Source of the DNA: Stegostoma tigrinum
Lineage: Eukaryota
Direction: 5' to 3'
Assembly: GCF_030684315.1 (NCBI RefSeq)
Contig: NC_081397.1
Coordinates: forward strand, 5,332,001 to 5,396,000
DNA length: 64,000 nt
The position numbers were made by a program, and so were the translations under genes. Of the stretch, positions 5,841 to 45,738 are shown piece by piece. Numbering within the stretch: position 1 is the stretch's first letter; each line of letters begins with the position of its first letter. The notes beneath the pieces are model-generated. The model worked only from the letters and a program-made list of their open reading frames with translations. It made no database searches and was not told where the DNA came from.

Positions 5841-5844
5841 ATAC

Positions 5845-10879: not shown

Positions 10880-10990
10880 TAGGAACGGCGGATGCTGGAG
10901 AATCCGAGATAACAAGGCGGAGAGCTGGACGAACATCGCAGAACAAGCAGCTTGGCTGCTGTCTTCATCCAGTTCTACACCTTGTTATAC
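10880..10990. mobile_element. Short fold-back element made of two inverted PLE terminal fragments
   Basis: GATAACAAGG...GCTGGACGAA...AAGCAGCTTGGCTGCT...TTCATCCAGT...CCTTGTTAT palindromic arrangement. Confidence 0.65.
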
Positions 10991-11029
10991 AGAAAGTCTG
11001 GCAATATTTCCACTGTTCACGGCACAATA

Positions 11030-13889: not shown

Positions 13890-14625
13890 TCAGGAACAAA
13901 AACAAAGTTACTGGAAATGCTCAGCAGATTTGGCAGCATCTATGGAGGGGAAAAAAGTGAACATTTCAGGTCCGATGACCCTTCCTCAGAACTGGATGCA
14001 GCGAGATAATGCTGAGGCCTTTGCTGAGTACAGAGCGTTCAGCATCAGAGAGCAGAAGGTTAGGAGGGATGGCCAATACCGGACATGATGTGGGGTGTTT
14101 GTGGGAAGGGATAGAGTCAGAGGGAAGGGAAGGAGCGGTAGGTTCCAGACAGCCATTGGTATTTTTGAGTTGATGCATCTTGTGGGCCTGATTGCCTGAT
14201 CGGAAAAGAAAAAAAATTCCTTGTTAGTCTGACGAATGAGCCGGAGGATGAAGTGGAACTGAGGACTGGTACAGCTCTGAGCCAGTGTGTTACGATGCTG
14301 TTGGAGAGAGAGGTTGAGAGTATGCATGTGCCTCCGCATCGCATTGAGGGTGGATCTCAGAATGTGGCCAGAGCTGCCGTCCGTGGAACGTTGAACATCA
14401 TGGTGGTATCTATGATCCTGGGAGGATTCAAAACATGAGGGATGAAACTTGAGTTGGAATCCACGTGGTGTGAGTCTGAGCCGGAGGCAGTCACTGAGGA
14501 ATGTGATATGGCTGTGGAAAGTGATATTGGCTGAATGAAGAGTCTGGGCCCGAAATATCAGCTTTTGTGCTCCTAAGATGCTGCTTGGCCAGCTGTGTTC
14601 ATCCAGCACCACACTTTCTTATCAT
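13890..14625 (-). mobile_element. PLE fragments: N-terminal ORF region (~13995-14520) plus terminal-repeat pieces
   Basis: FHSHITFLSDCLRLRLTPRGFQLKF...LSDAERSVLSKGLS; a terminal fragment at ~14530-14622 is flanked by duplicated ATGGCTGTGGAAA. Confidence 0.65.
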
Positions 14626-15088: not shown

Positions 15089-15409
<321 letters not shown>

Positions 15410-15439
15410 GCAACTCATTCCTTTTCCAGCGAACCCAAA

Positions 15440-15455
15440 GGCTCTTTTCAGAGCC
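15440..15455 (+). terminator. Histone 3' stem-loop (H4)
   Basis: CCAAA-GGCTCTTTTCAGAGCC-ACCCA, followed by purine-rich GAGAGCGG. Confidence 0.97.
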
Positions 15456-16064
15456 ACCCAAACCCTCCGATTGAGAGCGGAGACCTGAGGACGGGGAAAG
15501 GCAACACATAGGGCTGTTGCAGCGACTTTTAGTTTTGAACCAATCCTTTAAGGAAATATATTAACTTCGTGCCGCGCGTGGCAGGAGAGAGAGCGCGGAT
15601 TGTGAAATTATACTGTATGCAGAAAAGTGTTTTCTAACCAAGGTATCCCTACACTACAGATAGAGGTTTCACGCCATTCGAGACCATACTGTTCTGCAGC
15701 TGGTTATGGCCTTTCTAGTGAATACCAATCTATCAGTAATACTACCAGTTGTCCATACCATGAATAATTTGCTCTGTCCGGAATTTTGGGCCCAGGCGCT
15801 AATTGCATATTGCAGTGTTTGTACTTCATTCACGCTTCCTGGAATGATACTTTGTTCATTTTGATTCTGGTAGCTGTGCCGATGTTTTCGTGGCGAGTTC
15901 ATTCTAACTGCCTGTCAGAGACACATCAGGAAATGATTCAGAGCCCTCTCCGCGCTGACTGCAAGTTAGGTTCACAAGAAAATTTTGTAAAGCATAAGAT
16001 ATAACCTTAGTTGCAGACACATGGGACTTCTCGTTTTAAAATTATTTCAGCTCAGGCTGAAATC

Positions 16065-16230
16065 GGCGGGCGATTTGAAATAGACCAACTGTCATTTCAA
16101 CTTAACCAATCAGCCTCCAACAACTATTTTGCTGCCTTTTCTGTCCTTCAGCGGCTGTTTCTCAGGGGGTTGAGGGACGGGACTGTATCCAATCCCAGCT
16201 CTTGGCCGGGCTCTCCATTCCCTTAAACAG
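16065..16230 (+). promoter_or_regulatory. H3 promoter: CDE/CHR-like element and CCAAT boxes
   Basis: GGCGG-gcga-TTTGAA at 16065-16079; CCAAT at ~16106 and ~16189; TTAAA at ~16223. Confidence 0.55.
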
Positions 16231-16260
16231 GCAGCGCCGCAGCAGGATCAGCATTGATAG

Positions 16261-16698
<438 letters not shown>

Positions 16699-16740
16699 AA
16701 GGAGCGGGCCCGGCCCTGCACATTCACCCCGAGAAACAAC

Positions 16741-16756
16741 GGCTCTTTTCAGAGCC
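16741..16756 (+). terminator. Histone 3' stem-loop (H3)
   Basis: GGCTCTTTTCAGAGCC-ACTA, followed by AGAGAGAGCAG. Confidence 0.97.
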
Positions 16757-17470
16757 ACTACACTATACAGAGAGAGCAGCAATCGTCAGGCACTATGGAC
16801 TTCAGTTAATGCTATTGATGTCGTCTCAATGCAACAGCTCTTACAGAAACTTAATGTGTCTGAGATGCACTAATTCATCTGAAAGACAGGACGCAACTCG
16901 GGGCAATCAGATTTATACACTTTCACTAATCGCAACAAATTCAAGTACTGCACACCACGTTTTATAATTTATAATTTTCAATTGAAACGCCTCTGTGTGC
17001 GAATTGCTTCCCTTGGCGTTTCCCCAGCTGTAACTGAACTTGGCGGAGGAGGAGGATGGTGGAAAAGAATCGCCAATTTCAAAACCCACCAGAACAGACA
17101 AACTATTTTTATATTTTTGTTCGTGCACTCGAAATTTTGCGCAATCTCCCACTAGTGGATTCGTTCGACCAACTGAGGAGGGTCGGGTCAGTCTCGAATG
17201 GCCTCTTCCTGGCGCAGAGCTATTCTATGTCTCTATTTCCCTATCAGCGTATTGATGGGGATGCCCCTTTGAGTCACTGTTTGAAGTCGCTGTCCCTGTA
17301 GCAAAACCTCCAACTTTATTCGTCCCGTCCGGCAGCTGTTTTAGTGTTATCCGTGTTAAGGAGAAAGCAAAAGCGATTATTTTTGCTCATTTAAAGGACC
17401 GTGCTTGAACATAACGAAAGTTAATTAGCCAGCAGTGACGGTCTAGCTGCTTTTCACTGATGTTGTGGGT

Positions 17471-17486
17471 GGCTCTTAAAAGAGCC
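17471..17486 (-). terminator. Histone 3' stem-loop (H2A)
   Basis: Minus strand reads AAA-GGCTCTTTTAAGAGCC-ACCCA. Confidence 0.97.
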
Positions 17487-17516
17487 TTTGTGTTTGCAAA
17501 TTCAAGAACGGCCTCT

Positions 17517-17921
<405 letters not shown>

Positions 17922-19029
17922 TCAAACACTTTCACAGAGAATGCTGCAATGTGGCCTCATCCCGCCCTCTTATACCTTCGGGAGGAATGGGGGTGCGGCC
18001 ATTGCTGATTGGTCACATTGTTCGGTATCTCCTAATGTCGTTTCCATTCCCAATCAGATATCTGCTTCCCTCACCAATCCGGAGAGGGCCCGGAGAGGAG
18101 GCGGGAACGTCCCGGCGCCAAATCATCAACCGCTTTCTTTCAAACTCGGAAAGCCCGCCAATATGGACAAAACTGGAAGAAGTTTTACAAAGAAGAATAC
18201 GTTCATAGTTCAGATAATTTACTTTTAGAATACACCTGTATACTTCACACAATCTCTCTCTGATTCCCAGGCCTCAGTGAATCGATGTGTTTCTGATTTT
18301 TTTTATACTTAAGAATAAGCAGATGGCAGAAAAAAGAGCCCGCCCGAAGTAAGTCTCTGCACAGATTTATTTTATTTCAGATCAGCATATAATGCTGATA
18401 ATGGAGATAATGATAACAGTATCACACAACAATTTCTTTCCCGTTGAGCGCATTACTGCTTTAAACAACATTTTACAATCGCGCTCCCAACTGCACGAGA
18501 TCAACAATATTTCTCCTTTTGCGATGCCAGTCCGGCAGCTGTTCTGCTTTCATCTCGGTTCACTTTGAAATGTTCCCACCGACAGCAGAAAGCCTCATTT
18601 ATAGCTTTCTGCAAAACTGGACAGAACCCGCGGGGAGATTTGAAAATAAAACAAAATTCCTCTGCGTGGAAACCGTAGGAAAATACCGGCGCCAAATCAT
18701 CCACCGTTTTCTTTCCGATTTGAAAAGCCCGCCAACATGGGCAATACGAGGAAGACGCTTTACATGAATGCTTACGATTTAATTTCCTTTCAGATTACAA
18801 ATTGATACTTGACATAACCTCTCGTTCTCACTCAGTGAGTAACTCCGGCTTCGGGAAATTTTGTAATTATTGTGCTCGATCAGACTTCCCTGTTAATCTC
18901 GGTTCATTTTGAAAGCCTCTTACCGAGAACGGCAAGCCCCACATCCTGCATTCTGAAAATAAATTCCGAGAACTTCACGGAGAGATTTGGAAATTGAAAC
19001 AAAACACAAATCGCACGATACTACCAAAG

Positions 19030-19229
19030 ATAATGGGAACTGCAGATGCTGGAGAATTCCAAAGATAATAAAATGTGAGGCTGGATGAACACAGCAGGCC
19101 AAGCAGCATCTCAGGAGCACAAATGCTGACGTTTCGGGCCTAGATCCTTCTCTAGGCTCGAAACGTCAGCTTTTGTGCACCTGAGATGCTGCTTGGCCTG
19201 CTGTGTTCATCCAACTTCATTTTATTATC
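19030..19229. mobile_element. Fold-back PLE-terminus mini-element with a 14-bp target duplication
   Basis: Inverted termini meet at GACGTTTCGGGCCTAG...CTAGGCTCGAAACGTC; TCGCACGATACTAC occurs at 19011-19024 and 19230-19243. Confidence 0.85.
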
Positions 19230-19598
19230 TCGCACGATACTACTCTTCGTTGGTCTCAAATACGGGGTCATTTGCTTTCGTTACCACGGGAGAAATTTAG
19301 GGCTCATTACCCACAGGGACAAAACCCTCCAACATGTCCGAATTAGGAAAATGACGTTTTACAAAGAGGAATGAATAATTTAATTTTTCATAGAATTTAA
19401 TTCATTTTCATATTGCAAGTGCACCTGAAATATTTAGGAAAAACTCACATAACCTTCGCCCCGAAACGTCAACATTCCTGCTCCTCTGATGCTGCTTGGC
19501 TTGCTGTGTTCACCCAGGCCCACACCTGGTTGTCTCAGATTCTCCAGCATCGGCGATCCAAGTTAAAACGGTTCAGCTGCCTCAGTGCAATTGTGGGT

Positions 19599-19614
19599 GG
19601 CTCTTAAAAGAGCC
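19599..19614 (-). terminator. Histone 3' stem-loop (H2B)
   Basis: Minus strand reads CCCAAC-GGCTCTTTTAAGAGCC-ACCCA. Confidence 0.97.
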
Positions 19615-19658
19615 GTTGGGTTTTGGATTGGTGTCTGCTTTCAGCACAGCGAGGTGTC

Positions 19659-20039
19659 TCACTTGGAGCTGGTGTACTTGGTCACCGCCTTTGTACCCTC
19701 CGACACGGCGTGCTTGGCCAGCTCCCCGGGCAGCAACAGCCGCACGGCGGTCTGGATCTCCCGGGAGCTGATGGTGCTGCGCTTGTTGTAATGGGCCAGG
19801 CGGGAAGCCTCCCCTGCGATACGCTCGAAAATATCGCTGACGAACGAGTTCATGATGCTCATGGCCCTAGAGGAGATGCCGGTGTCGGGGTGAACCTGCT
19901 TCATCACTTTGTAGATGTAGATGGAGTAACTTTCTTTCCTGCGTCGGCTCCTTTTCTTGCCGCTTTTCCCCGGCGCCTTCTTGATGATTTTCTTCGCGCC
20001 TTTCTTGGAAGTTGCCTGCGATTTCTTCTCATCTGCCAT
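19659..20039 (-). CDS. H2B: Histone H2B (126 aa, divergent N-tail)
   Basis: [17 protein letters not shown]...[23 protein letters not shown]...AVTKYTSSK. Confidence 0.99.
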
Positions 20040-20091
20040 AACGACGGTCACCGTCAGACACAGAAGAAGGGAAAGTGGGCGCGTAGCTCGC

Positions 20092-20155
20092 TTTTTATAG
20101 GCTGCTGGCGTCAGCAATGCTAATGAGGGATGGGGGAGGTCTTGTTCATGATTGG
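20092..20155 (-). promoter_or_regulatory. H2B promoter: TATA, CRE-like site, octamer variant, CCAAT
   Basis: TATAAAAA at 20099-20092, TGACGCCA, ATTAGCAT at 20124-20117 (canonical ATTTGCAT), CCAAT at 20155-20151. Confidence 0.7.
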
Positions 20156-20619
20156 ACAGTTTACAAGAATCTCAGCGGATGTGATTAGCTTTTCTGTGAT
20201 TGCTTAGTGTGGGACACAACGGGGATCTGTCAGGATATGCAACGAAAAGTGAAACACAAGCCGAAATTTTGTACCCGAATCACTCTACATTTAACTCGTT
20301 ATTGTCATTTATTGATATTGTGAACACAGTACCTGAGAGTTTTTAATTGCGACAATGTATTTATCTGCTCAAAGCAACCTTTCATGTATAACATATTATT
20401 TTGTTTCATCACTCTCTGTGGTTTCTGCATTACACTATGAGCAGTATTGTGTTCAGAGCTTGATGTTTAATGAGGGATAGTTTGTCGAATATCTGTCAGT
20501 CTCTGCGATATGAAAATGGGAGTGCAGTTATCCATCTGACGCTTTTCACGCAGTGTGGATGGTTATTACTCTCTCACAGTCTGTTCCTGTCATACTGTCG
20601 TAAAGATAGACAACACTCG

Positions 20620-21680
20620 TGGGTCCACCTCATCCATGGCAACCAGATATCCTAAATTAATCTCGTCCTATTTGCCAGGATTTGGCCCACATCACTCGAA
20701 GCCCTTCCGATTCATACACCCGCCCAGATGTCTTTCAAATGTTGTAGCTGGACTCAACTCCACCACTTCCTCTGGCAGTTCACTGCAATTCCACACCACA
20801 CTCTGTGAGCAAACATTGCCCACCGAAAGTTCCTTTCATATCGTGATTTTCTCATCCAAAACCCATGCCCTCTAGTGTTGGACTCCTACCCCTTGTGCAT
20901 AAGAACGTGATTATTCATGCTATCCATGCCCCTCTTAATTTTATATCTTCTATACAGTCACCATCGAGCCTCAGACACTTCATGGAAAACAAGCTGCAAA
21001 ACAAGCCACAATAAGCCCTGTCTATTCAGTCTCTCCCTGAAACTCAAACTTTCCAACTGTGGCAACATCCTTTTAAACATGTTCCTGACTCAGTCAAGTT
21101 GAACAACACCTTCCCTATTGCAAGGGGGCACCAGAACTGAATGCAGTATTTCAAAAGTCGTCTAACCAATCTTCTGTACAGTCACAACATCACCTCCCAA
21201 TCCTCAATATACACTGAATGCCCTGACCAATAAAGGCAATTGTATCAAACACCTTCTTCACTGCCCTGTCTCCCTGGAATTCCACTTTCAAGACGCTATG
21301 AGCCTGCATTCCATGGCCACTTAGTTTGACAACACTTCCCGAGAATTGACCATGAAGTGTGCAAGTCTTGCCCCGATTTTCTGTTACAAAATGTAGCACC
21401 TCACATTTGTCAAGATTAAACCCCAGCTGCCACTCCATAGCCCATTGGTCCTCTCGATCAAGGTCCTGTTGTAGTCTGAGGTCAGGCAGTCGTGCAGCAT
21501 GGACAAAGGCCCTTCAGCCCAAACTGGTTCATGCTGATCATGGTGTCCTCTCAGCTAATTCCAACTGCCCACATTTGGTCCATATCCCTCTAAAACCTAC
21601 TCTTTTTTTTAATGCTGCAATTGCACCTGCCTCAACAACTTTCTCTGGCAGCTGATTCCACATGTGCACCACTCCGCAAG
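20620..21680 (-). mobile_element. Degenerate CR1-like LINE fragments (mirror at ~63000-64000)
   Basis: WQLGFNLDKCEVLHF remnant. Confidence 0.75.
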
Positions 21681-21809
21681 GTCCTTCTTAAATCCCTCTG
21701 TTTTCTTGATAAACCTTCCTCACTCTCAAAACTACATCTTAATTTTGTATATTGGAAAACATACGAATCATGCCTTGTACATTCACATCAAGGCCACTTA
21801 TCACACAAT

Positions 21810-22100
21810 CATCGAATCCCTACTGTGTGGAAACAGGCCCTTTGGCCCAACAAGTCCATGCTGACACTCCGAGCATCCCACCCAGATCCATCCTGCTATA
21901 ACTCACCCAACACATCACTGAACACCACGGGAAAATTCCCATAGCCAACCCACTTAGTCTGCACATCTTTGAACTGTGGGAGGAAACCAGTGCACCCGGA
22001 GGAACATCATGCAGACATGGAGAGAATGTGCAAACTCCACACAGATAATCGCCTGAGGATGGAATTGAACCCGGATCCCCGGTGCTAACCACTGAGACAC
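21810..22100 (-). mobile_element. HE1/V-SINE-like SINE (mirror 62580-62880)
   Basis: B-box-like GGTTCAATTCC on the minus strand plus the conserved SINE core. Confidence 0.75.
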
Positions 22101-22124
22101 CGAAGTGCCCAACAAAGGTCACAG

Positions 22125-23430
22125 CACAAACCCCTGTGGCACACCACGAGTCACAGGCCTCCAGTCCGAGAAACAAGCTTCAACCATCACACTCTGCTTT
22201 CTACCATCGAGCCATTTTTGAATCAAATTAGCTAGCTCTCCCTGGATCCCTTGCAACTTAACCTTCATTACTAGTCTGCGTGGAGGACCTTGTCAAAAGC
22301 CTTACTAAAGACCATACAGACTACATCCACTGCCCTCCCATCATCTATCCACTTGGTTACTTCTTTGAAAAACTCAAAGATTTGTCACATGTGCCTTTCC
22401 GCACACAAATCCATTCCGACTATCCAAATGTTCATTGATCCTGTCACTCAGCATCCTTTCCAATAACTTGCTTACTGCTGGTGTTCGGCTCACTGGCTTG
22501 TCTTTCCTCCCTTTCATAAACAATGTAACAACTTTAGCCACCCTCCAGTCTTCTGGAACCTCGCCAGTGGCTAAAAATGAAGCTAAAATCTCTGCAAAGG
22601 AAGGGTCTCTGCAATTTCTTTCCTGGCTTCCCACAAAATCCGACATGGACACTATCAGAACTCGGAAATTCATCCACCTTAATATGATCTAAAGCTGCAA
22701 AGACACCCTTTCTGTTCATACAGATGCAGTCCAAAATATCTCTACTTCCTTCCCTTATTTCTTATAGGGATTATAGGGTGGCACAGTGGCTCAGTGGTTA
22801 GCTATGCAGCCTCACAGCACCAGGGACCCAGATTCGAATCCAGCCTCGAGCGACTGTCTGTGTGGAGTTTACACATTCTCCCTGTGTCTGCGTGGGTTTC
22901 CTCCGGGTGCTCCGGTTTCCTCCCACAGCCCAAAGATGTGTAGGTTAGGTGGACCGGACATGCTAAATTGCCTGTCGTGTTCGGAGTGTGTGGGTTAGAG
23001 GGGGATGGGTCTGGGTGGGAAGCTTGAAGGGGTGGTGTGGACTTGTTGAGCCGAGGGGCCTGTTTCCACACTGTAGGGAATTAATCTCATTTCCTGAGCA
23101 TCCATGATTCTCTCCTCAGCAAACACTGAGGAGAAATATTCATTAAAAATCCTCCCCTTCTGCTGTGGCTCCACACATGGACCACCATCCTGATCTTAAA
23201 GGGGTCCTCCTCTCCCCAGCCAACCTTTTATGCTTATTATAACTATGGAGCCTCTGGGGATTATCTGTAACCTTTCATGCCAGATCCATTTCATGACATA
23301 TTTTTGCTCTTCTGATTTCCCTCTTGTGTGCTTCTCCACTTTTTATAGTTATCTAGGGATTCACTTGAGCCTGATAGTTTAAACCCAATGTCTGCCTTCT
23401 TCCCTTTCCTGACCAGATCTTCAATGTCGC
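22125..23430 (-). mobile_element. Degenerate CR1-like ORF2 fragment interrupted by a SINE (mirror ~61230-62560)
   Basis: LATGEVPEDWRVAKVVTLFMKGRKDKP...GFVCGK remnant. Confidence 0.75.
22775..23085 (+). mobile_element. Full-length tRNA-derived SINE (HE1/V-SINE-like; mirror 61560-61875)
   Basis: A box TGGCTCAGTGG, B box GATTCGAATCC, V-SINE-like core, LINE-like 3' tail GGGCCTGTTTCCACACTGTAGGG. Confidence 0.85.
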
Positions 23431-24060
23431 TTGATATTTCAGGTTATCTGCCTCTGTCATTTCTGTTGTCCAAAAGAGTGGCATTATTAGTCTGTACCTT
23501 TCAATCTGTGCTCTGTGAATGTGTGAGTGTAGTTCTCATTCCATGCCTGACAGTTTCTCCAAGAAAATGCATGAGTGTTGTTACTCGTACCTACATGTCC
23601 ATTCGGTGGTATCAATGTAAGAGTGCAGGCATTAGTCTGCACATGCCAATTTCTGCTCCGTCAATATGCGAGTTTAGTTTCTGTTAGGCAGATGTGAGAA
23701 TGTAGTTGTCACAATGTACCTGGGAGACTTTGATCTCTGACCATTTGAGTTCAGTTGTCACACTGTACCTGCCAGTTTTTAGTTTGTGAAAAAGAGAGTG
23801 TGGTTTTAAATCTGTGACTGTCAGTTTCTCCTAAGTGAGTTTGTTTGTACAATTATCAGTATATTCCTGAAAGATTCTGTTGCATGAATGTGTAATTGTA
23901 GTTATCAATCCGTCCATATCAGTCTTTGATGTGTGAAATTATGAGAGGATGTACTAATTTTTCCCCATCCGTCTTCTGTCTTGTGAAAATGGGTGTTTAG
24001 TTATCAAGCTGTTTATTTTCATATGTGCTCTGCGAATGTTTGGCAGCAGTTATCACTATC

Positions 24061-25530
24061 TCAGGAGCACAAAAACTGATGTTTTGGGCCTAGATCCTTC
24101 ATCAGAGAGGGGGATGGGGAGAGGGAACTGGAGTCAATAGGGAGAGAGGGGGAGGCGGACCAAAGATGGAGAGAAAAGAAGATAGGTAGAGAGGAGAGTA
24201 TAGGTGGGGAGGTAGGGAGGGGATAGGTCAGTCCAGGGAAGACGGACAGGCCATGGAGGTGGGATGAGGTGGTCGGTAGGAAATGGGGGTGCGGCTTGAG
24301 ATGGGAGGAATTGATTGGTGAGAGGAAGAACAGGTTAGGGAAGCAGAGACAGGTTGGGCTGGTTTTGTGGTGCAGTGAGGGGAGAGGAAGAACTGGGCTG
24401 GTTTTGGGAAGCAGTCGGGGAAGGGAAGATTTTGAAGCTTGTGAAGTCCACGTTGATACCATTGGGCTGCAGGGTTCCCAAGTGGAATATGAGTTGCTGT
24501 TCCTGCAACCTTTGGGTGGCATCATTGTGGCACTGCAGGAAGCCCATGATGGATATGTCGTCTGAGGAATGGGAGGGGAATCTGAAATGTTTCGCAACTG
24601 GGAGGTGCAGTTGTTTGTTGCGAACCGAGCGGAGGTGTTCTGCAAAATGGGCCCCAAGCCTCCGCTTGGTTTCCCCAATGTAGAGGAAGTCACATTGGGT
24701 GCAATGGATACAATATACCACATTGGCAGATGTGCAGGTGAACATCTGTTTGATATGGAAGGTCATCCTGGGGCCTGGGATGGGGGTGAGGGAGGTGTGT
24801 GGGGCAAGTGTAGCACTTCCTGCGGTTGCAGAAGAAGGTGTCTGGTGTGGTGTGGTTGGAGGGGAGTGTGGAGCGGACAAGGGAGTCGTGGTGAGAGTGG
24901 TCTCTCCAGAAAGAGACAAGGGTGGGGATGGAAAAATGGCTTGGGTGGTGGGGTCAGATTGTAGATGGCGGAAGATTCGAAGGATGATATGTTGTATCCA
25001 GAGGTAGGTGGGGTGGTATGTGAGGATGAGGGGGATCCTCTGGGGTCCCCCAACTGTAACCCAAAACCAGCCCAGTTCTTCCCCTCCCCCCCACTGAATC
25101 ACAAAACCAGCCCAGCTCATCCCCTCTCCCCACTGCAATCCCAAAACCAGCCCACCCTGTCTCTGCTTCCCTGACCTGTTCTTCCTCTCACCCATCCCTT
25201 CCTCCCACCTCAAGCCGCACCTCCATCTCCTACCTACCACCTCATCCCGCCTCCTTTACCTGTCCATCTTCCCTGGACTGACCTACCCCTCCCCACCTCC
25301 CCACCTGTACGCTCCTCTCTACCTATCTTGTTTTTTCTGCATCTTCGGTCCACCTCCCCCTCTCTCCCTATTTATTCCCGTTCCATCTCCCCATCCCCCT
25401 CTCTGATGAAGGGTCTGAGCCCGAAACGTCAGCTTTTGTGCTCCTGAGATGCTGCTTGGCCTGCTGTGTTCATCCAGCTCCACACTTTGTTGTCTTGGAT
25501 TCTCCAGCATCTGCAGTTCCCATTATCACA
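24061..25530 (-). mobile_element. PLE (Neptune-type) 3' fragment with GIY-YIG endonuclease and inverted terminal repeats (mirror 59198-60592)
   Basis: RIPLILTYHP...FTCTSANVVYCIHCTQCDFLYIGETKRRL..HFAEH...EQQLIFHLGTLQPNGIN; termini ~24061-24420 and ~25055-25530 are inverted. Confidence 0.9.
25401..25432 (+). ncRNA. Minimal hammerhead ribozyme motif in a PLE terminus (intact core)
   Basis: ct-CTGATGA-a-GGGT(ctga)GCCC-GAAA-C-GTC-ag: CUGAUGA and GAAA boxes, stem II, palindromic ACGT and a GUC cleavage triplet. Confidence 0.75.
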
Positions 25531-26261
25531 TCACTCTGTATCTGTCAGGTTCTGCTTGATGAATAAATTTTCAGTCTATCCATGGCAGTTTCTGTTATAA
25601 GAATGTCAGAGTTTAGTATCACTCTGTTTCTGCCAGGCTCTGTGATGTCAACGTCTGAACGCTGTTATCAGTTCTTGCACTGTCAGTTTCTGCAACTGTG
25701 TGTATGTGAGTGTGGTTGTCAATTTATACCTGCCATTTTCTGGTATGTGAATATGAGAGTTTGAATATTAAACAGTGCCTGCCAGCTTCTGATGTGTCAA
25801 TATTTGAGTGCAGTTATCAATCTGTTCCTGTGATAACAGGAACTGCAGATGCTGGAGAATCCAAGATAACAAAGTGTGGAGCTGGATGAACACAGCAGGC
25901 CAAGCAGGGTCTCAGGAGCTGCTTGGCCTGCTGTGATTGTCCAGCTCCACACTTTGTTATCAATCTGTTCTTGACAGTCTCTGCTATGCAATAGGTGGGA
26001 TTGAAGCTGTTTGTCATTGTCAGCATTTACGGTGTGAATGTATGAGGGTAGTTATCTATCCGTACCTGTTTGTTGCAGCTGACAAGATAACGTGAATGCA
26101 GTTACCAGTCAATGCGAGTCAGTTTCTGCTATGTTAATACATGAATTTAGTTATCAGTCTATGCCTGTGTGTTCCTGTTCTGTGAATGTATGACTGTGAT
26201 TATCAGTCTCTAGCTCAAAGATTCCTCAATGTGAATACGTGAGTTTAGTTATCGATCTGTA

Positions 26262-27445
26262 CACCGGACCTGAAATGTTAACTCTGTTTTCTCCCTCACA
26301 GATGCTGCTGGACCTGCTGAACTTTTCCAGCAACTTTGCTTTTGTTCCTGATTTACAGCTTCCGCAGATAACAAGGGGTGGGGCTGGATGAACACAGCAG
26401 GCCAAACAGCATCTTAGGAGCATAATAGCTGACGTTTTGGGCCAAGACCCTTCATCAGAAAAAGGGGGAGGGGAAGAGGATTTTGAAATAAATAGGGAGA
26501 GAGGGGGAGGTGGACTGAGGATGGACAGAGGAGAAGATAGGTGGAGAGGAGAGTATGGGTGGGGAGGTAGGGAGGGGATAGGTCAGTCTGGGGAGGATGG
26601 ACAGGTCAAGGGGGCAGGCTGAGGTTAGGAGGTAGGAAATGGAGGTGCGGCTTGAGGTGGGAAGACGGGATAGGTGAGGGGAAGAACAGGTTAGGCAGGC
26701 GGGGATGAGCTGGGCTGGTTTGGGATGCAGTGGGGGGAAGGGAGATTTTGAAGCTGGTGAAATCCACATCGATACCACGAGGCTGCAGGGTTCCCAAGTG
26801 GAATATGAGTTGCTGTTCCTGCAACCGACGGGTGGGATCATTATGACACTGCAGGATGCCCATGTTGTCTAAGGAATGGGAGGGGGAGTTGAAATGATTC
26901 GCGACTGGGAGGTGTAGTTGTTTATGGCGAACCGAGCTGAGCTGTTCTGCAAAGCAGTCCCCAAGGCTCCGCTTGGTTTCGCCAATGTAGACAAAACCAC
27001 ACCGGGTACAGCTGATGCAGTATACCACATTGACGGATGGGCAGTGGAACATCTGCTTGATGTGGAAAGTCATCTTGGGGCCTGGGATTGGGGTTAGGGA
27101 GGAGGTGTGCGGGCAAGTGTAGCACTTCCTGCGGTTGCAGGGGAAGTGCCGGGTGTGCTGGGGTTGGAGGGGAGTGTGGAACGGACAAGGGAGTTGTGGA
27201 GAGAGTGGTCTCATCTGAAAGCAGACAAGGGTGGGGTAGTAAAAATGTCTTTGGTGGTCGGGTTGAATTGTAGATGGCTCAAGTGTCAGAGGATGATGCG
27301 TTGTATCCAGAGGTTGGTAGGGTGGGATGTGAGGACGAAGGGGGTTCTGTTTTGGCGGTTATTGCGGGGGCAGGGTGTGAGGAATGAGGCGCGGGAAATG
27401 TGGAAGACACGGTTGAGGGCATTGCGGACCGCTGCGGGGGGAGCA
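26262..27445 (-). mobile_element. PLE (Neptune-type) 3' fragment (mirror 57715-58900)
   Basis: CNRRKCYTC Cys-rich linker plus NVVYCISCTRCGFVYIGETKR GIY-YIG motif. Confidence 0.9.
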
Positions 27446-27974
27446 TCCGCAGTTCTTTCGGTTTTTATTTTGTCCGTTTATGCTGTGTGAAACACTGAGT
27501 GTGGGTATCTATATGGGCCTTTCAGTTTCTGATTTGTGGATGTATGAGTGCAGATTTACTTTGTACCTGTCAGTTTCTGCTCTGTAAATGTGAGAGCGTA
27601 GTTGACAACCTTGTCCTCACAGTTTGTGCCGTGTGAATGAATGCAGTTATGTATCTGTCTCTGCCACTTTCTGTTGTGAGAATGTGAGAGTGCAGGAATC
27701 AATCTGTACCACTCAGTTAATGCAAGTGGAATGAGGGAGTGTAGGTATCATGTACATGTCCGTGTTATCATCAACCTGTTCCTGTCAGTTTCTGCTATCC
27801 GGGTACCTGAGTATAGATGTCATTCTCTGTCAGTCAGTTTCTACTCAGTGAATATGTGTCTGAAATTATCAGTCTGTCCATGACACTGTTTTGCGATGTG
27901 AATGTTTAGTTATCAATCGCTCTCCGTCAATTTCAGTTTGGAGAGCCTGAGAGTGTAGTGATTACTTGTTTTAA

Positions 27975-28770
27975 TACATTCTGATCAGATACTCAACTAC
28001 AACAGCAATCATCCCAATATCTACTAATGGAGCTGCAACAAAACACTGTTCAAGTGAGCCACAACACACTGCAGCATCCAGAGCTGCGTAAAGATGAGGA
28101 AGAACACGATACAGTGACTATAGAAACGAAGGTTACCTGAAAAGCATTGTCCTTCGACACCTGCATAACAGACGACAAATGGATAACACAGCACGTCCAG
28201 AGACACTAGTCACCTGACCAAACATGAAAAACATATCAGAAATGAGCACCATATTGCCCCGAGCCAACAACCAGAACTGACAGAACCAACGTTATTTGCA
28301 CGATATCGTGCACAGATGCCAAAAACAGTACAAAGGCCAAACTGGTAGGAAACTAGCCATCATGATTCGTAGACACAAACTAGCTACCAAGAGACATGGC
28401 CAACTATCATTCATCTCAATGCACATGGACAAAGAGGGACACCAATTTGACTGGGACAACTTAGTTATCTGAGGAGAAGCCAACCAAAGACATGCACGAG
28501 ACTTCCTGGAGGCCTGACATTCAAACTGGAATGCCATTAACAAATGCGTAGAGCAGGATCCCATACACCAACCACTGAGAAACAAATCCAGAAGTGATGT
28601 CAGCCATCCCAGCAAACTGCAGCACATAAACAGCCACCAGGACACAACAGCAACGCATCACCAGAGGTGCACTGAAGGTATAATGTAGCTGGTGACAAAA
28701 TGTCTCTAAACAAGCAACAAGCTTGTTGAGCAATTCAACAACAGCATAGTTATTAATCTGACCCCAACGG
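27975..28770 (+). mobile_element. Second PLE family (Penelope/Poseidon-type), decayed (mirror ~56390-57190)
   Basis: Manual translation near 28320: QKQYKGQTGRKLAIMIRRHKLATKRHGQLSFISMHMDKEGHQFDWDN. A decayed hammerhead-like CTGAAGG...GACAAAATGTCT lies at ~28673-28706. Confidence 0.7.
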
Positions 28771-30379
28771 TTCATGCAATGCAAATGTGACAGCAGCTAT
28801 CATTGTGTAGCCGCCAGTTTCTGCAATTTGAATGTCACTGTTATCAATCTCTGAGTTTCTGCTTGGTGACCATGTGAGTGCAGTTATCAATAACGGCCTG
28901 TCAGCTTCTACTCTGTGAATATGAGAGTAGTTACCAAACTGTATCTGTCAGCTAATGCTTTGTGAAACTGGGAAGGCTGACTCCAGAATCTGCAGCTCTT
29001 GCTAGCTCTAAAGTGATCGTCAATCAGTTCCTATCAATTTCTTCTGTATGGATGTGTGCATGTAGAGCAACCTGTACCTATCAGTACCTCATAATTTGCA
29101 AGTAAAGTTATCAATATGTACCTGTGGGAATCTACTTTGTGAATATTTGAGTATAGTTGTCAAACTGTACCCGTCGGTATTTTTTAAATCTGTGGATATG
29201 CAGTTATAAAACTGTACCTGTCACTTTATGGTCTGTGAAATTGGGAGTTGTCATCAATATGTAGCTGCCAGTTTCTGCTGTGTGGATATGTGAAAGTAGT
29301 TATCGTTCAGTTGCTGTCAGTTTGCTATGTGAATGTGAGTGTTGTTTACTAACCTGTGTATCCCAGTTTCTATGATGTGAATGTGTGAATATCTTTATGA
29401 ATCTTTAGCTGTCGGTTTCTGCAATGTCAATATGTGAGTCTCGTCATCCTTTTTCTTTTGTATGCATTTGCAATACAAATGAGTGAGGTTAGGCATCAAT
29501 CCATACTGGTCATTTTCTACTTGTAAAAGTGGCTTAATTGTCAGCAGCCAGTAATATTCTTAGTGGAGGTATGATTCATTATGTGATAATTGCTAGTAGA
29601 GTAATTTTACATAGATTTCATTCAGATACTGAGTGTATAATTTCAGTTTATCCATCTTCAAAAATGGTGTAAAAGTCAATGGGTGATGAATGCTGAAATT
29701 TGTTGGAACTGTGTATGTGGAATGGAGAGATAAGAAAAATAAAGTTTAATTTCTCCAACCTTGTTCTCCTGTTGGAAAAATTTGAACATATCTGTTGGAA
29801 ATTAAGCTCACTGTGTGTCTGACTCAATCTGCTCTGTGACTGCGGAAAGGATGATCTCTGCTCTGACAGTGGGAACATCCCTGCTGTTTATCAGAAGGAT
29901 CTGCTCACAATTGCCTCTGCACTGAAGAAATCTTACTTTGTCTTGGTCTTTCAAGTGTTTTTTTTCTGTGGGAAGACAGAAGAGATAGTTCGTGTAAAGC
30001 AACATCAATTGGGTTTGACAATGTTAAACTGATCAACACAACATTTAGTTAATAATCATTTGGATATATTCATATAACTAGGAATTCTAACATAACTATG
30101 GGTCTTGATCCAATCTTGCCCTGAGCTGCTCCTTGTCTGATCATTTCTAAAAACTTCAACACCATTTGAATGAGCTCCTGAAAGTAAATGATACCTGTAC
30201 AGCTCCATGACTGGAACCACCCAGTGGAAGCTTGTCAGTGGATGTGAGTTTAGTTATTGATCTATTAATGTCAGTTGCTACTTGGTGAATGTGTGAGAGT
30301 AGTTATCAATGTGTCCCTCTAGGTCTTTGGTAATTATTCATGTATTACACAGCAGAGGCTGACAGGGACAGAATGATCA

Positions 30380-31580
30380 GGAATTATTGATCAATTAAAA
30401 TTATACAGCACAGAAGGTGGCCATTTGGCTCATTATATCCATGCTGACACAAACACCCCAAAATGGCCATCATAAAATCCGATCTTCTTGCAAACATCCC
30501 ATAGCCCTGCAGCTTGCAGACTGAATGTGGAGGTCCAGGTATGTTCTTACAAGAGTTGAGAATCTCTGCTATCAGCAACTCAGAAAGCGTATTTGAGATA
30601 AGCACCCTCTCATAAAAATGGTTTTCCTCCCATCATCTCTCATCGTCCTGCCACTTCACTTCATCTACACCCAATGGTTTTTAAACTCAATGCCAAGGGA
30701 AACAGATTCCCCCTGTCGACTCTATCACTGCCCATCCCAACTGCCTCAATCATGGCACTCCCAGCTTTCACTGTTCAAACTAATATAGCTCCAACCTCTG
30801 CAATCACTGCTCATAGCTATAACTCTCCAGCCATGGCAACATTCCAGTAAATCTTCTCTGCAATATATCCAGAGCAATAACGTTTTCCTGTAATGTGGTG
30901 ACCATCGCGGCGCACAATACATCAGTTCCAGCCTCACCAGTGTCTTACATAATTTCATCGTTATAGCCCGACTTTTGTGTTGTATACCTCTGCCAAAAAA
31001 GGACAGCATTCTATATACCTAGTTTCACAATCTCATCCACCTGTACTGCTATTTTCATACTCCATTACACTTGCACACCAAACCACTCATTTTATGTACA
31101 ATTTCCACACCACCTCATGTATTCCTATTTTGTGTCCTTGCACCTCCTGAAATGCATTACCTCACATTTATCAGAGTTGAACTCCATATGCCACTCATCT
31201 GCCCCTTCCACCAAAACTTCTATATCATTTTGGAGCTGACAGCTATCCTCTGCACTACCAGTACACTGTTAAATTTTTGTGCTGGCTGAAAATTTCCCAA
31301 TTGTATCCCCATGTTCAAGTCCAAGTTGTTATCATATAAAACAAACAGCAGAAGTCCCAACACTGAGCTGTGAGAAACACCACTTGAAACAGCTTTCGGT
31401 TTACAAGGGCAGCCATTGACCATTTGATTCCTGTTGCTAAGCAAACTTTGCTTCCAATTTAGCACATTGCTCCGTATCCCAAAAGCCTTTCCATTTCTGA
31501 TTCATCTGCTGCATGGTACTTTATCAAATGTCTTACTAAAATCCATGTAGTTAACGTGCATTGCACTATCCTCACACATT
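30380..31580 (-). mobile_element. Old CR1-like LINE fragment (mirror 53580-54780)
   Basis: SGVSHSSVLGLLLFVLY and KTLVRLELMYCAPRWSPHYRK remnants. Confidence 0.75.
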
Positions 31581-34500
31581 CACGTGGCATTCACTGACAG
31601 GTATTGATTGAGAACTAAAATCACACATCCACATTGTGAAAACTGACAGGGACTGATTGAAAAATACAATTGCACCTTCACACAGCAATCAGTGTCTATT
31701 CTGTTATACAGATGTGAGCTTTGTAATTGACCTGTTGATAATGATGTGTGAACATGCAACGTGAATATTTGAGTGCAAATTTCAATCTGTATCTGTCCAC
31801 GTCTGCTCTGGGAACCTGAGAACGTAGTTATTCGTCTGCAACTATCAGTTTTTGTGATGTGAATATACAAATGCAGTTATGAATTTGTAATGCTTTCCTC
31901 TCCGTGAATATGAGAATACAGTTATCTATTTCTACCTATCATTCTTGGCTATGTGCATATACGGACATTGTTATCAATCTGTCCCTGTCATTACCTGCAG
32001 TGTGAATGTTGAAGTGCAGTTGTAAACCTTTTCCAATCAGTTTCTGTGATTTAAATATGGAAAAATAATTGTTATTTCCCCCTATCAGATTCTACTCTGT
32101 GAATATAAGTGCCTTGTTGTGCCATTTTATGCCTCATGCGGCTTGGGAGTGTTACTGTGAGTTTCTTCTGATCGGTTTCTGCTTTGTGAATATCAGAGTG
32201 CAGCAATATTGTCAAAGTCCATCTGGGAAACAGACCTTTGGTCCAACAGTCCATGCTGACCACAGGTATCAATTTCATTCCTTTCCTTTCAGCATCTGTT
32301 TGTTGTATGAGAGGGAGATTTCTAATGAGGTGCCAATCTGAATTAAAGATGGGTATTGGGCTAAGTGACACTGTCCTTTTCCAAATGTCTGCTTGTGTTT
32401 CTAGCTCTGCATGTATGATTGGATTCCCTTTATGAGGTGTATTACAAACAATTATATCATTATAACACTAAATTATAATACATTAATCAGAAAGAGAGTG
32501 TGGGCATTCTTCTGAAATAGTCAGTCTCCCACTGAGATTATAAATGTTGTTACTGTTGGTTTTCATCAGCATCGGGCTGACGGTCAGCATGGGATCGATT
32601 CAGTCTCTGGCATTGTGTGTCAATGTATTCCTCATGCGTTGTCATCATATTTAACATGGGTAATGAGTGGGTAATGTTGCATTGAACATGTTACTTGTCG
32701 GAACTGCTGACATTCTTCTATTGTTCAGATCTCTGCTGCTCAACATGAATGAGATTTTACCCAATGCCATATAATCAGATCACGTAAATTAAACTATTTT
32801 AATACCTTTGTCAGTCTCTGACTCTGTAGTTGCAGTTTGGTTACTGTCCGGTTTATGATAGTAAGTTTTGTTCTGGATTGGTCAGTCACCCAAAAACTGA
32901 ATGTGTATTTATTCCTCCTGTAACAAAATCATGAGATCAGCGTTTCTTCAATCTATTTCCAATAAACTCCAGCTATCTGTATCTGTTCACGACACCATTT
33001 GCTTTCTTCTTTGGTCCATTTAACAACATCTTTATGCAGTACTTCTGTACAAGATGAGAGCTGCTTTTTAATTTGTACATCTTTGGAAGCAAATTAAATT
33101 GTCATGTTTATTTCATTTTAAACTTGGCCTACTATATATTTCCTTCAGTTTCAACAAAGGAAATTGATGCACTAGTTACATGTCCAAATCTAAGACATGG
33201 TGTGATATTTGGAGGCATATTTAATCTGGATTTCAATTTACTTCTTGAGCTATTTCATTAGAATTCATCATTGATCATGCAATCGATTCAGTATTTTCTG
33301 ATGTAGTGAACATTACGAATTCACTTTATGCCAAGCTGATACCTTATACTTAATCCTCAAGGAAAGTATTCACATACTGGGATTGAAGTACTTCGCTCTT
33401 ATCCTGTCCTATTAATGCGTAATGAAAGGGGAGCTCTCCGACCCATGTGATATTTAAGAGAAATGGCATTTTCTTTTGTTTTTGCCTGGGTATCTACTAA
33501 CCTGGCAGCATCTCCACACTTTGTAAGTTATTCTGTACCTACTGTGCACTGGCACAAGAGCTGCTGTTATGAAACAAGACAGACAGATACACTCAATTGA
33601 TCCTATTTCTATCTTCCTGTATTGCGTTACTGAGCAGATTAAGTATTTCTTGTAAAGTGGAGAGCCAATTACCACCATGGCAGAGGACAGAGTTTTTGGT
33701 TCATCTCTTCTTTCGCAAATGTGAAACAGCCTATGTTCTTCAGTTGTTTGTGCCTCCAGCATTTATAAGCAAGTGAAAATGCAAGGCATTGCAACTGAAA
33801 TGAGTCTGTGCTTTTCTTCAAAGTTGAGGACAGAGAAGCAATGGACCTTTGCCAAGGATACATTGCAGAGTCTAACCGCTGTGGTGATATCAAAGGATAT
33901 TTTCAGGAGGAGATTAATATTATTCAACATTGCATAGTGACACAAGTCTTGGAATGCTGCTAAAGTTAAGATGTTAATTTAGTATGTTATTGCCAAAGAG
34001 GAAGTGCAATGAACAAATCAACTGCATTGCGGCTGACTGACCACAATGTTGCTTGTGCAGGAAAGAAAATTAGTTTTCTTACTTCGAATTTGTCTTATGG
34101 CGCGGACATTAAACATGCTCGGTGTTGAACTTTTGTTTTCTGTCATTCAGTGGGCACAACTGGAACCGTCAAACTGAATTTACTGAAGAATAAACACCGT
34201 TGAACAATCTTTGCAAAATATAAGTGAGGACGGTTATATTGTGATATTGCTTGTTCGAAAAAAATGGCATGAAGCTTGCTTATGTTTTATGTAAAAATTC
34301 AGGTGGATTGTCAAGAGGAACACAGAGCTATTTGAACAAAATTTAAGCTAATTTGAAAACAAAAGGTCTCTGATTATAAAGTCCTCTTGCTTAATATAAA
34401 ATTTAAAAAAATCTGATCATGCTTGGTGAAGAAATTGACAACTGATAAAGGTGAGGATGATACTTCCTCTGCAAACATGACACATTCATGGAATTTGAAT

Positions 34501-35599
34501 ACTGGCTGAATTGATGTAGAATTGTCGGCTGGTTGTTTCTAAACAGTGCAGATTCAGAGAGAGAAAGGACTGTTTGCTGTGCTGCAGACATCTATGAATA
34601 TATGTGTGTGAGTGGTAGTCATTGACTCGTACTTGTTGGTAGCTGTCATGTGAAGATATGAGCGTAATCATCAAACTGTCCCTCAGTTTCTGCTGTGAAA
34701 TATGAGAGTTTAGTTATCAACCTATATCCATCAATTGCTCTTTCATGAATGTGAAAGTGTTACAAATATGTCCCTGTCAAATTTGTCTGTGAATATGCAA
34801 ATGTAGTTATCAATCTACATATGCTTATGCTTTTGCTTTCCTGTCATGTGTGCATGTATTTATCAGCCTGTACCTGCCAGTTTTTGTAGTCTGAATGTGT
34901 ATGTAATTATCTTTTTGTCCCTGTCATTTTCTGATATGTGAATATGAGTGCGCCGTTATCAATAAGTGCCTGTCAGTTTCTTCTCTCTGGCTGTGCAAGT
35001 GTTTTTCCCCATTTGGCCCCGTCAGATCCTGTCCTGTAAATCTGAGAGATGAGTTATTAGGCTATGCCTGATGCTATCTGGTTTGTGAATGCGTTTATCA
35101 TTCTCTCCCTGTATTAATTTCTAGGGTAGGTTTTCTGTCTTATATCGACTTGCTCTGTCTCTGGTCTGGACAGATATAGAGTTTAATGTTCATTTGCTGT
35201 TGCAAGCTCACTGTATGAGACATTCTTAATTGTACAGTCAACAATCTGGGTTATCTGCTTGAATGTAGGTTATTCTCTGTATCGTTTCAGGTCACTACTT
35301 GATTTCCTTCTGATCTATTTAATAGCAAAGTTTATATTCAGTAGAAGTGTATCAGATGGTTTTCACTATTCAGCTTGTAGTTTTATGCAAACAAATGCAA
35401 TGTCAATGTCAATGTCAATTTCAATCTGAAACTTATCCTGACATGCAATTTCTCCAGTTTGTACAAAAGGAAATGATACTTTAATTATCTCTCCAAGTCG
35501 ATGAGATGGTGACACACAGAGAGGTGAAATTAATCTCTTGTTCAATATATTTCTTGAACTACTTCTTGATAATTCAGTGTGTCAAAGAACAAAAAAAAA

Positions 35600-36400
35600 A
35601 TTCAGCAGAGAGGAACAGGCTCTTTGGCCCTCCAAGTCTGTGCTGATCCATATCCTCTATCTAAACCTGTCACCTATTTTCCAAGGATGTGTATCCCTCT
35701 GCTCCCTGTCCAGTCACCTATCTGTCTACATAGATATTAAAGGACACTATAATGCACTCCTCTACCACCTCCGCTGGCAACACATTCCAGGCACCCAAAG
35801 CCTTCTGTGTAAAGAATTTTCCATGCATATCATCTTTAAATTTTTGCCCCCTCACCTTGAAATCATGACACGTAGTCATAGAGTTGCACACTCTTGGAAA
35901 AAGCTTCTTGCTATCCAACCCGTCAATCCATCTCATGACTGTGTCGGCCTCAATCAAGTCCCCCCTCAACCTCCATCTTTCTCATGTAAATAATCCTAAT
36001 CTACTCAAACTCTCTTCATAGCTCGCACCCTCCATACCAGGCAACATCCTGGTGAACCTCCTCTGCACCTTCTCCAAAGCATCAACATCCTTTTGGTAAT
36101 GTGGTGACCTGAACTGAAAACAATATTCCAAATGTGTTCAAACCAAAGCCCTATACAACTGTAACATGACCTGACAACTCTTGCACTAAATGACCCACCC
36201 GACAAAGGAAAGAATGCAGTATGTCTTCTTGACCACTCTATCGACCTGTGTTGCCACCTTCAGGGTGCAATGGACCTGAACACCCAGATCTCTCTGAGCA
36301 TCAATTTTTGCCAGGGCTTTTCCATTTACCACATAGTTCGCTCTTGAAGTGGATCTTTCAAAATGCATCACCTCGCATTTGCCTGAACTGAACTCCACAA
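35600..36400 (-). mobile_element. CR1-like LINE 3' fragment (mirror 48485-49265)
   Basis: FSSGKCEVMHF, RGDLIEA and FFTQKALGAWNVLP remnants. Confidence 0.85.
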
Positions 36401-37216
36401 AATTTGTCCTTTTTTTTTACCCAAACACGGTGAATGAGTGATATTCACATTATGAACACGGGAGTGCATGTCCACACGAGGATTTAGGTATTTCGCTCAC
36501 ATTCTTTTCCATTTGTCGCTTATCATGAAAGGCTAGCTCTCTGACCTGAAATCCGTGAGTGGAAAGCATCTTCATTGTTACACTGTGAGGTTTGCAATAT
36601 ACATGATCTTCATGGCTGTTAGACGGTGTGACACGTGTGATGGGGATAGTCTATATATTTACAACACAGTGGAGTGTGTGTGTGTGCCAGAAAGTGTGTG
36701 CATACACTCTGCTGGCATTCTATGTCAGGCTTTGGGACAGGATGTGCATTTGGAAGGCACATTAATTAATTAAATTAAAAGATGAATGCTGTCCTGCTCA
36801 GTTACTGATGATAACGTGAATGTTTTCTTCCATATCTGTCCTCATTATCTGCTATATGTTTGGTTGGTGTAACTATGTAACAGCATGAACTATTTCTTCA
36901 CCTCGACAGTAAGTTTGAAAACATGCTTAATCAGTGTAGATTTACTGCCGTTCTTTTGTGTCTATTTCAGACGAAAATTCAGTCTATTCATTTTCAAAAA
37001 TGCCGTAAATGCCAATAGGCTACAAATGATCTTTTTTTGAAACAGGGTGGTGTGTTGAGAAAACAGAGGAAGGGGAAAAAACTATTTTTATTTTGTTGGT
37101 TGTGTTTGACTGTTGGCTTGCATGCATGTCACCAGAAATTGAGTTGAATGTATCTCTGACTCAATTTGCTCTGTGCCTGTGGAAAGGGTGTTCTCTGCTT
37201 GGAGATGGTAACATAC

Positions 37217-37298
37217 CTGTTGGTTGTTCGAAGGAGCTGGTCACCCTTGGCTTGGTACCAAGCACACATAACATTGTCTTGTTCCTGCAAGTGTTTTC
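37217..37298 (-). other. Exon-like module A, left-arm copy (82 bp)
   Basis: Minus strand reads ctgtcttcccccAG | ... CAG | GTATGT. Confidence 0.45.
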
Positions 37299-37799
37299 CT
37301 GGGGGAAGACAGAAGTGTTTACTCCTGTAAATCAACATCAATTAAGTTTTACAATATCAAAAAGATTACTGTAATACTCAGTTAATAATTAGTAGGATGT
37401 TTATTTTCTTTAACTTCTTCTGAAGAACAGTGCTCCAAAAGCCTGTCATTTCAAAAGAACCTGAGAGATGATGACAGTGTCATGAGACATCTACCTTTTC
37501 TTTAAAGTCATCAATTCAAATGCAGGTCAGATTCCATTTTAACTTTCAGCTGCGCCTTGTCTAAGGATATTTTTTTAAAAATATATCTCCTTCGAAAGCA
37601 ATTGAGTAAAATCTAGAAATGGAACGATAACTGTACAGCTCCACGTGAGGTGCTAACCAGAGCCACTGCAATGTCTGCGCAGTTCATGTTACCAAATCCC
37701 AATGCACTAACTGTAGAATATAGTGACTCAATCCATGACCTTTACAGGGTTCTTATTATTTCCAGTCTTGTCTGTGTTTCGACTTTGACTGCACAATGT

Positions 37800-38290: not shown

Positions 38291-38340
38291 CTTTTGCAAA
38301 TAATTCCCAGAAACAGAAATCAATTGATCATTTCCCCAGA

Positions 38341-44983: not shown

Positions 44984-45063
44984 TTGCTCAGTGCCGCCAC
45001 CAGCAGCTTCATCGCTGACCCAGCTCAGTCTGACAGAGAGAGATTCAGCGCAGAGTTCCCGAC

Positions 45064-45702: not shown

Positions 45703-45738
45703 AGCAGTCGGTGTAACGTGTCACCACCTGAACCCAAA

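Follow-up and report, generated by a model that had tools for sequence, protein, structure and literature searches.

Hammerhead motifs in a 64-kb shark window are most probably decayed ends of a Neptune-type Penelope-like element family

Introduction

Why does one stretch of shark DNA carry so many copies of a small ribozyme motif, and does any of them act on host RNA? The window (the whole stretch analysed, 64 kb) had been predicted to hold minimal type-I hammerheads at the termini of Penelope-like elements (PLEs), and several of them were proposed to process long transcripts of the arms of a large palindrome. Cervera and De la Pena (2014, PMC4209133) described the min-HHR class in metazoan PLEs. 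That paper reports no cleavage of monomers and a low cleavage of dimers, and the dimer-cleavage background given with the original prediction agrees with this. A review outlines the hammerhead dimer model (PMC6765202).

Results and discussion

The window carries three families of hammerhead motifs

Combining a pattern scan with a sensitive self-comparison, we found ten full motifs of one family (family A) across the 64-kb window. Their first core base, C3, lies at 1709+, 24105-, 25403+, 26458-, 38466-, 39462+, 39940-, 58703+, 59290- and 60546+. These are the ten sites of the original prediction, whose minus-strand numbers denote the low ends of the GAAACGTCAG part. Also present are the GUC of the 25403 motif (25428-25430), the predicted half copies (14532, 19126-19170 and 45866) and, on the minus strand, the CTGAGGA variant (13989-13961). 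However, the list lumped three families together: family A comprises the ten full copies, family B comprises 13989 with the half motifs 26262/58899, and family C comprises 45866 and 19460. It lacked a half copy at 19443-19472 on the plus strand, the family-B halves, a remnant at 53, and the tail-only mini copies 10891-10988 and 25846-25976. The state of the individual motifs is given below.

1709-1738, plus strand: family-A motif, G12 lost; on a single 5′-truncated arm starting at 1370
13961-13989, minus strand: family-B motif with CUGAGGA and a 5-bp stem II; palindrome and stem I altered
14532-14625, plus strand: family-A half motif and tail, joined inverted to an N-terminal PLE ORF piece (about 14000-14530, minus strand)
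19028-19230: two half motifs that meet within stem II, forming a mini inverted insertion with a target duplication of 14 nt
19443-19553, plus strand: family-C half motif and tail
24076-24105, minus strand: broken family-A motif; G12 lost, stem II mismatch, palindrome broken
25403-25432, plus strand: family-A minimal hammerhead, the sole fully intact copy, with core, inserted A, 4-bp stem II, ACGU palindrome, GUC and 2-bp stem I
26262-26351, plus strand: family-B half motif and tail; duplicate at 58810-58899 on the minus strand
26429-26458, minus strand: family-A motif without G12; an ORF end lies upstream (26750-27441)
38437-38466, minus strand: family-A motif in the left arm of the inverted insertion 38340-39553 (14-nt target duplication); two pairs of stem II disrupted
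39462-39491, plus strand: family-A motif in the right arm of the same insertion; stem II defect as in 38466; arms 96% identical
39911-39940, minus strand: family-A motif; U16.1 lost, stem II mismatch, palindrome also broken
45802-45975: family-C mini inverted insertion; half motif 45866-45888 on the minus strand, with stem II pair 3 A-U instead of G-C
58703-58732, plus strand: family-A motif, G12 lost; palindrome duplicate of 26458, 96% identical
59261-59290, minus strand: family-A motif, palindrome counterpart of 25403; A15.1 lost, ACGU broken
60546-60575, plus strand: family-A motif that corresponds to 24105 in the other palindrome arm; all core letters present, stem II closed by G-U, ACGU palindrome broken

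All 11 core letters (CUGANGA, GAAA, UH) are kept in four of the ten family-A copies (25403, 38466, 39462 and 60546), and the remaining six have each lost one. An unpaired A stands between positions 9 and 10.1 in every copy (10/10). The 10.1-11.1 pair is G-C in seven, G-U in one and G-G in two, and all four stem II pairs are formed in six. The palindromic positions 15-16 read ACGU in 6/10, being broken in 24105, 39940, 59290 and 60546. Stem I has 2 bp in nine copies and 3 bp in 60546. The sites had been found correctly, while their description as intact or with one or two changes understated the damage, as nine of ten copies are altered in a core base, stem II or the palindrome.

We used a hammerhead descriptor (CUGANGA, stem II of at least 4 bp, GAAA, palindrome, UH; at most one core mismatch). 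The listed motifs are present above chance expectation: the window gave five descriptor matches, one of them exact, against shuffle means of 0.1 and 0.03 (30 block-wise dinucleotide shuffles). An Rfam search of the window returned 14 matches at E up to 5, none of them to hammerhead families.

The motifs lie behind the ORF of a Neptune-type element

Judged by sequence, the motifs are minimal type-I hammerheads with an ACGU palindrome and without a stem III loop, and they form part of the 3′ end of a Neptune-type PLE. The end of a GIY-YIG ORF lies 290-365 nt upstream on the same strand in six of the ten motifs; the other four belong to arms that begin in the 3′ UTR. One such ORF end is the following.

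24434-25039, minus strand: Neptune-type PLE ORF end (linker and GIY-YIG), found by tblastn with the RT plus GIY-YIG protein P0001, E 1e-38

Among eight related proteins, six are labelled whale shark (five at 70-79% identity) and one skate; the closest are predicted whale-shark proteins, which suggests a shark-like genome, probably that of a carpet shark. The ORF translations of 26606-27358 and 57950-58555 contain a CX4CxxC linker, and two cysteines stand between GIY and YIG. According to PMC8557442, a CX2-5CxxC linker with cysteines between GIY and YIG is a mark of Neptune/Nematis. Pfam GIY-YIG was matched by one of four GIY-type pieces, below the cutoff, and the PLE reverse transcriptase is present as a fragment only (about 40370-40876). 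The N-terminal PLE ORF piece at about 14000-14530 (minus strand) matches six long PLE-type proteins at E 1e-5 to 1e-3. The source element is assigned as a Neptune-type PLE by its linker and cysteine marks, from a window that holds no full-length element. The predicted Penelope-like termini are borne out by the upstream GIY-YIG ORF end (6/10), the two tail ends and the target-site duplications described below.

Aligning contigs of one sequencing run on 25300-25600 (301 nt), we obtained 133,664 of them; three runs from other organisms gave 1,322 to 25,255. These contig numbers show a very abundant PLE family and are not a copy number. At 25417 and 25418 the loop II of 25403 does not match the family majority, which there makes up 86% and 95% of the depth in the contigs of one sequencing run. 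These two positions are the sole differences inside 25403-25432 among the differences listed. Since the majority differs at both, the loop II of 25403 is private.

An AUG in the motif core (25406-25530) opens a 13-codon frame, whose stop lies one base before a second AUG. The second AUG stays open through the tail, and the 13-codon stop is shared by six of the seven family-A pieces translated. Lying 18 nt beyond the cut site, the second AUG may be a candidate ORF start.

Ten motifs stand for five insertions

Two larger features organise the motifs.

20680-63999: large palindrome with arms 20680-38241 and 46586-63999, 93-96% identical; three motifs duplicated through it
24058-25530: inverted PLE insertion; its long arm, on the minus strand, runs from the GIY-YIG end to motif 24105, and its short arm, on the plus strand, comprises 3′ UTR, motif 25403 and a long tail

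The palindrome (43 kb overall) consists of two 17.5-kb arms and an 8.3-kb spacer, and it pairs 58703 with 26458, 60546 with 24105, and 59290 with 25403. In addition, 24105 and 25403 are the arms of a single inverted insertion, and so are 38466 and 39462. With three palindrome duplicates and two second arms, the ten family-A motifs stand for five insertions and are not the independent copies that a plain list suggests.

The PLE insertions are 5′-truncated, often as two inverted arms, with the tail on one end. The arms of the insertion 24058-25530 are 88% identical over 365 columns. Target-site duplications of 14-18 nt were present in four of seven insertions tested, and the family tail has two alternative 3′ ends about 30-35 nt apart. 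The motifs 38466 and 39462 share one broken stem II; therefore, either the template was already broken when it was copied, or conversion between the arms followed.

We asked where the short pieces begin. The cut site was the starting point of 0/11 short pieces and was spanned by 6/11, in a count that omits 24058 (a long copy) and 53 (an internal deletion) and in which the family-C starts are approximate. Cleaved RNA as the template for the window copies was therefore rejected; the pattern agrees with uncut RNA as the template, as described in PMC11167929. All 11 short pieces begin within 28 nt before to 21 nt after the cut site (10891-10988, 14532, 19150, 25918, 26262, 45888). From this zone to about 340 nt upstream there is no piece start, which may reflect hairpin breakage or the search method.

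Some further observations concern the surroundings of the insertions. Between the palindrome arms, the PLE insertion 24058-25530 differs from 59199-60593 by about 10%, and a neighbouring insertion by 4%. The right arm lacks the counterpart of about 25495-25918, apparently lost between two tails. A degenerate repeat of about 49 bp covers 5840-8370, 23470-34980 and 49830-61170; its TTATC word is the insertion point of several PLE pieces and also terminates both PLE tails.

The motifs decay along with their flanks

In six non-duplicate copies, 9/114 motif cells (7.9%) and 130/1541 flank cells (8.4%) differed from the column majority (p = 1.0), a comparison of low power in which the flank rates include subfamily differences. 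Core changes made up 4/66 in the non-duplicate family-A copies. The motif is conserved no better than its flanks. Neither mark of host domestication was found, the core not being conserved above its flanks and a monomer stem III being impossible. CpG-type changes at the two motif CpGs occur in five of the nine damaged copies (5/10 overall).

Stem II covariation was examined in 13 aligned window copies, and no pairing measure rose above shuffles, at low power. Two pairs in the window have changed on both sides, and 222 of 500 shuffles scored as high. The one true stem II swap in the window, A-U, belongs to family C. The original prediction had itself taken a lack of stem II covariation across copies as counting against it; within the window, at this low power, that is what we see.

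Searching beyond the window with a degenerate motif pattern, we obtained at least 123 metagenome stretches and 3 viral stretches. The 130 motif rows listed from other contigs share the architecture of the window motifs. In 21 of these rows a GIY-YIG end lies 83-164 nt upstream, and in 101 stem I reaches at least 3 bp, as it does in 78 of the 102 distinct relatives among the matches listed. Pairing at positions 1-4 of stem I exceeded all 2000 shuffles in 61 distinct types among the matches listed, with relatedness uncontrolled. The pattern fixed most of stem II and left stem I free, so that the relatives say little about stem II. The core is kept while the stems vary, across the three window families and the 130 rows listed. 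A 31-nt tail pattern found 0 matches in viral contigs and 0 in metagenome contigs. The three viral contigs with hammerhead-like cores have no PLE protein nearby, and two of them have G at position 17 and no stem I.

Could the hammerhead likeness be a coincidence within a repeated hairpin? The Rfam result, empty of hammerheads, and the window covariation, not above shuffles, would fit such a view. But the descriptor matches far exceed shuffles, the core is retained in three families and 130 rows listed, and the motif sits behind GIY-YIG as published (PMC4209133). By the descriptor counts against shuffles and the core retention of the relatives, we ruled this explanation out and give it practically no credence.

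Putative palindrome-arm transcripts would be a poor substrate

It had been proposed that motifs of the window cut long host RNAs transcribed from the palindrome arms; 25403 would be the foremost candidate. The 25403 motif keeps every core base, stem II and the palindrome. The 60546 motif retains the enzyme-side letters, with a GUC-bearing copy 1.8 kb off on the same strand. Doublets at the inner ends of both arms, which we take to be NRF1-like, hint at promoters. These points make host processing conceivable, but the arm transcripts remain putative, and one intact copy in ten is compatible with the observed rate of decay.

The RNA partners also argue against it. The 25403 motif has no intact partner on its strand; the nearest full same-strand motif is 14 kb off with a broken stem II, and its palindrome counterpart 59290 lacks A15.1. 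By predicted folding, two of the ten copies (25403 and 60546) are capable of serving as the enzyme strand, and every same-strand pairing lies at least 23 kcal/mol above the best dimer. The pairing of 60546 with 58703 has a 2-bp stem I and 3/4 stem III pairs, and it is energetically unfavourable (+4.2 against -29.7 kcal/mol for the best dimer). In read-through RNA, 25403, 39462, 24105, 59290 and 60546 are each predicted to pair with the opposite arm of their own insertion. Of the six arm motifs, 26458 and 58703 lack G12, and the other four (24105, 25403, 59290 and 60546) would be buried in long double strands by the opposite insertion arm.

The cues to transcript direction conflict. The promoter-like doublets point outward, suggesting outward arm transcription; donor-like words speak for the other strand, an effect probably due to the 49-bp repeat. 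Outward transcription would place 26458, 24105, 58703 and 60546 in the sense orientation, each of them damaged, and would leave 25403 antisense. With the opposite direction, 25403 is sense but solitary and buried in double strand, and 59290 is without A15.1. Both directions being unfavourable, processing of arm RNA by the motifs is unlikely, and the proposal is not supported by this analysis; we regard host processing as very improbable. As side observations, GCGCATGCGC-like doublets occur at both inner ends of the palindrome, a third copy of that region lies at 11007-11476, and no C2H2 finger motif was found in the palindrome arms.

Fossil 3′ termini explain the motifs best

We conclude, with a probability of about 0.86, that the motifs are fossil 3′ termini (pseudo-LTR, hammerhead and tail) of the abundant Neptune-type PLE family, passengers free of a host role, with 25403 as the least decayed. 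In a partial tandem of an active parent, two minimal hammerheads would pair via ACGU/ACGU into a double hammerhead and cut after GUC. Drawing on PMC4209133 and PMC11167929, we expect that this cleavage was weak and probably occurred only with protein assistance. Reverse transcription from two tail start sites, mostly on uncut RNA, would then yield the 5′-truncated and inverted insertions that we observe. After insertion, the motifs would have decayed in parallel with their flanks, largely at CpGs.

The stem I of 2 bp is below the 4-5 bp of the min-HHRs and below that of most relatives, so even in the parent family the ribozyme may have been poor or dead. Folding revealed no distal extension of stem I. 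One alternative is that the family hammerhead has become a self-sequestered or dimerising hairpin that only the protein of the element switches on, or that has another job, such as RNA pairing or translation start. In the 51-nt fold of 25403, the core CUGAUG pairs over the cut-site strand with P 0.94. The active double-hammerhead fold of 25403 lies 23 kcal/mol above its best alternative, compared with a median of 12.5 (range 7.4-31.5) for 102 relatives, in dimer energies that exclude tertiary contacts. The majority stem II/loop II is palindromic and could form a 12-bp self-duplex of -22.6 kcal/mol, a strength that none of the 41 relative stem types reaches. The family majority has the 2-bp stem I as well, with no difference at 25400 or 25433 among those listed, and the candidate ORF start lies just past the cut. 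Two papers add that the anole PLE hammerhead needs protein to cut (PMC11167929) and that translation start has been proposed as another role for weak hammerheads (PMC13725137).

However, the self-pairing is minor in 170-nt context (P 0.13), with the active stem I still absent, and the loop palindrome is broken in the sub-variants 26458, 58703 and 39940. The supplement of PMC4209133 prints an Acropora motif nearly matching family A, with the same GUCAG arrangement and a 3-bp stem I. A 2-bp helix I has also been described already for D. virilis (PMC4209133). We consider this hairpin explanation unlikely. Equally doubtful is its stronger form, in which a high-copy shark Neptune family carries a hammerhead unable to fold alone, and the motif is a protein-gated switch or an RNA-dimer signal for a dimeric PLE protein. 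Such a gate or signal could also account for the breakage and inversion of short insertions within the motif or directly after it.

The window adds shark examples to a known class

The reading as fossil PLE termini fits the systems described so far. Like the window copies, the min-HHRs of PMC4209133 have a type-I core without the stem III loop, palindromic positions 15-16, an unpaired base before stem II and G10.1-C11.1. They likewise lie in PLE terminal repeats, mostly as single truncated copies, with pairs on opposite strands. The difference is in helix I, which has 2 bp in the window family (helix II has 4 bp) and 4-5 bp in the min-HHRs, with 2 bp for D. virilis only. The 2-bp stem I matches this exception and therefore makes the window family a variant within the class, not an outsider to it.

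Frangieh et al. (2024, PMC11167929) report that the Anolis carolinensis Poseidon hammerhead cuts only with the element protein, that its cleavage is dispensable for insertion in vitro, and that no RNA-seq ends occur at the cut site. Anolis Poseidon resembles the window element in having a hammerhead beside the ORF start, two reverse-transcription start sites defining the tail, and an uncut RNA template; unlike it, the window element carries the Neptune/Nematis linker motif. The EN+ PLEs of Neptune and Nematis (Craig et al. 2021, PMC8557442) share with the window element a C-terminal GIY-YIG with a CX2-5CxxC linker, 5′-truncated inverted insertions and a tail on one end. By its linker marks the window element is placed with these two clades jointly.

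A preprint (bioRxiv 10.64898/2026.07.22.740005) describes hammerhead non-LTR retrozymes in one chondrichthyan, and cleavage in 1/9 frog dimers. Their type-I hammerheads are, like the window copies, related to PLE terminal repeats. Retrozymes are head-to-tail tandems with a ribozyme per unit, whereas the window copies are single or inverted and tied to ORF remnants. Tandem units were not found in the window: the closest same-strand motifs lie 1.5-2.4 kb apart, in separate insertions, and two are never both intact. Shark terms are absent from two supplement files of PMC4209133, the available part of PMC6155905 adds nothing on sharks, and in the accessible literature on shark PLE hammerheads we found nothing relevant beyond that preprint.

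In summary, the motifs belong to a known type that had been named correctly; odd are the family-wide 2-bp stem I, the self-pairing core and the palindromic loop II. Shark examples are thereby added to a described class, and the window illustrates how easily dispersed PLE ends mimic a set of working ribozymes. The 2-bp-stem variant would matter more if it were protein-gated, since what PLE hammerheads contribute to transposition is open (PMC11167929).

Histone genes and other neighbours

The window also contains the histone genes H4, H3, H2A, H2B and H1 (15089-20171 and 45034-45779), each with a 3′ stem-loop; H1 is located in the spacer of the large palindrome. Each of the family-C mini insertions 19443-19553 and 45802-45975 is located about 20-25 nt beyond a histone stem-loop match, the first behind that of H2B and the second behind that of H1. 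Family C possibly prefers open histone 3′ ends for insertion. In addition, fragments of a non-PLE LINE reverse transcriptase are present at 6779-7816 on the minus strand (Pfam RVT_1, E 1e-13) and at 40930-41900 on the plus strand.
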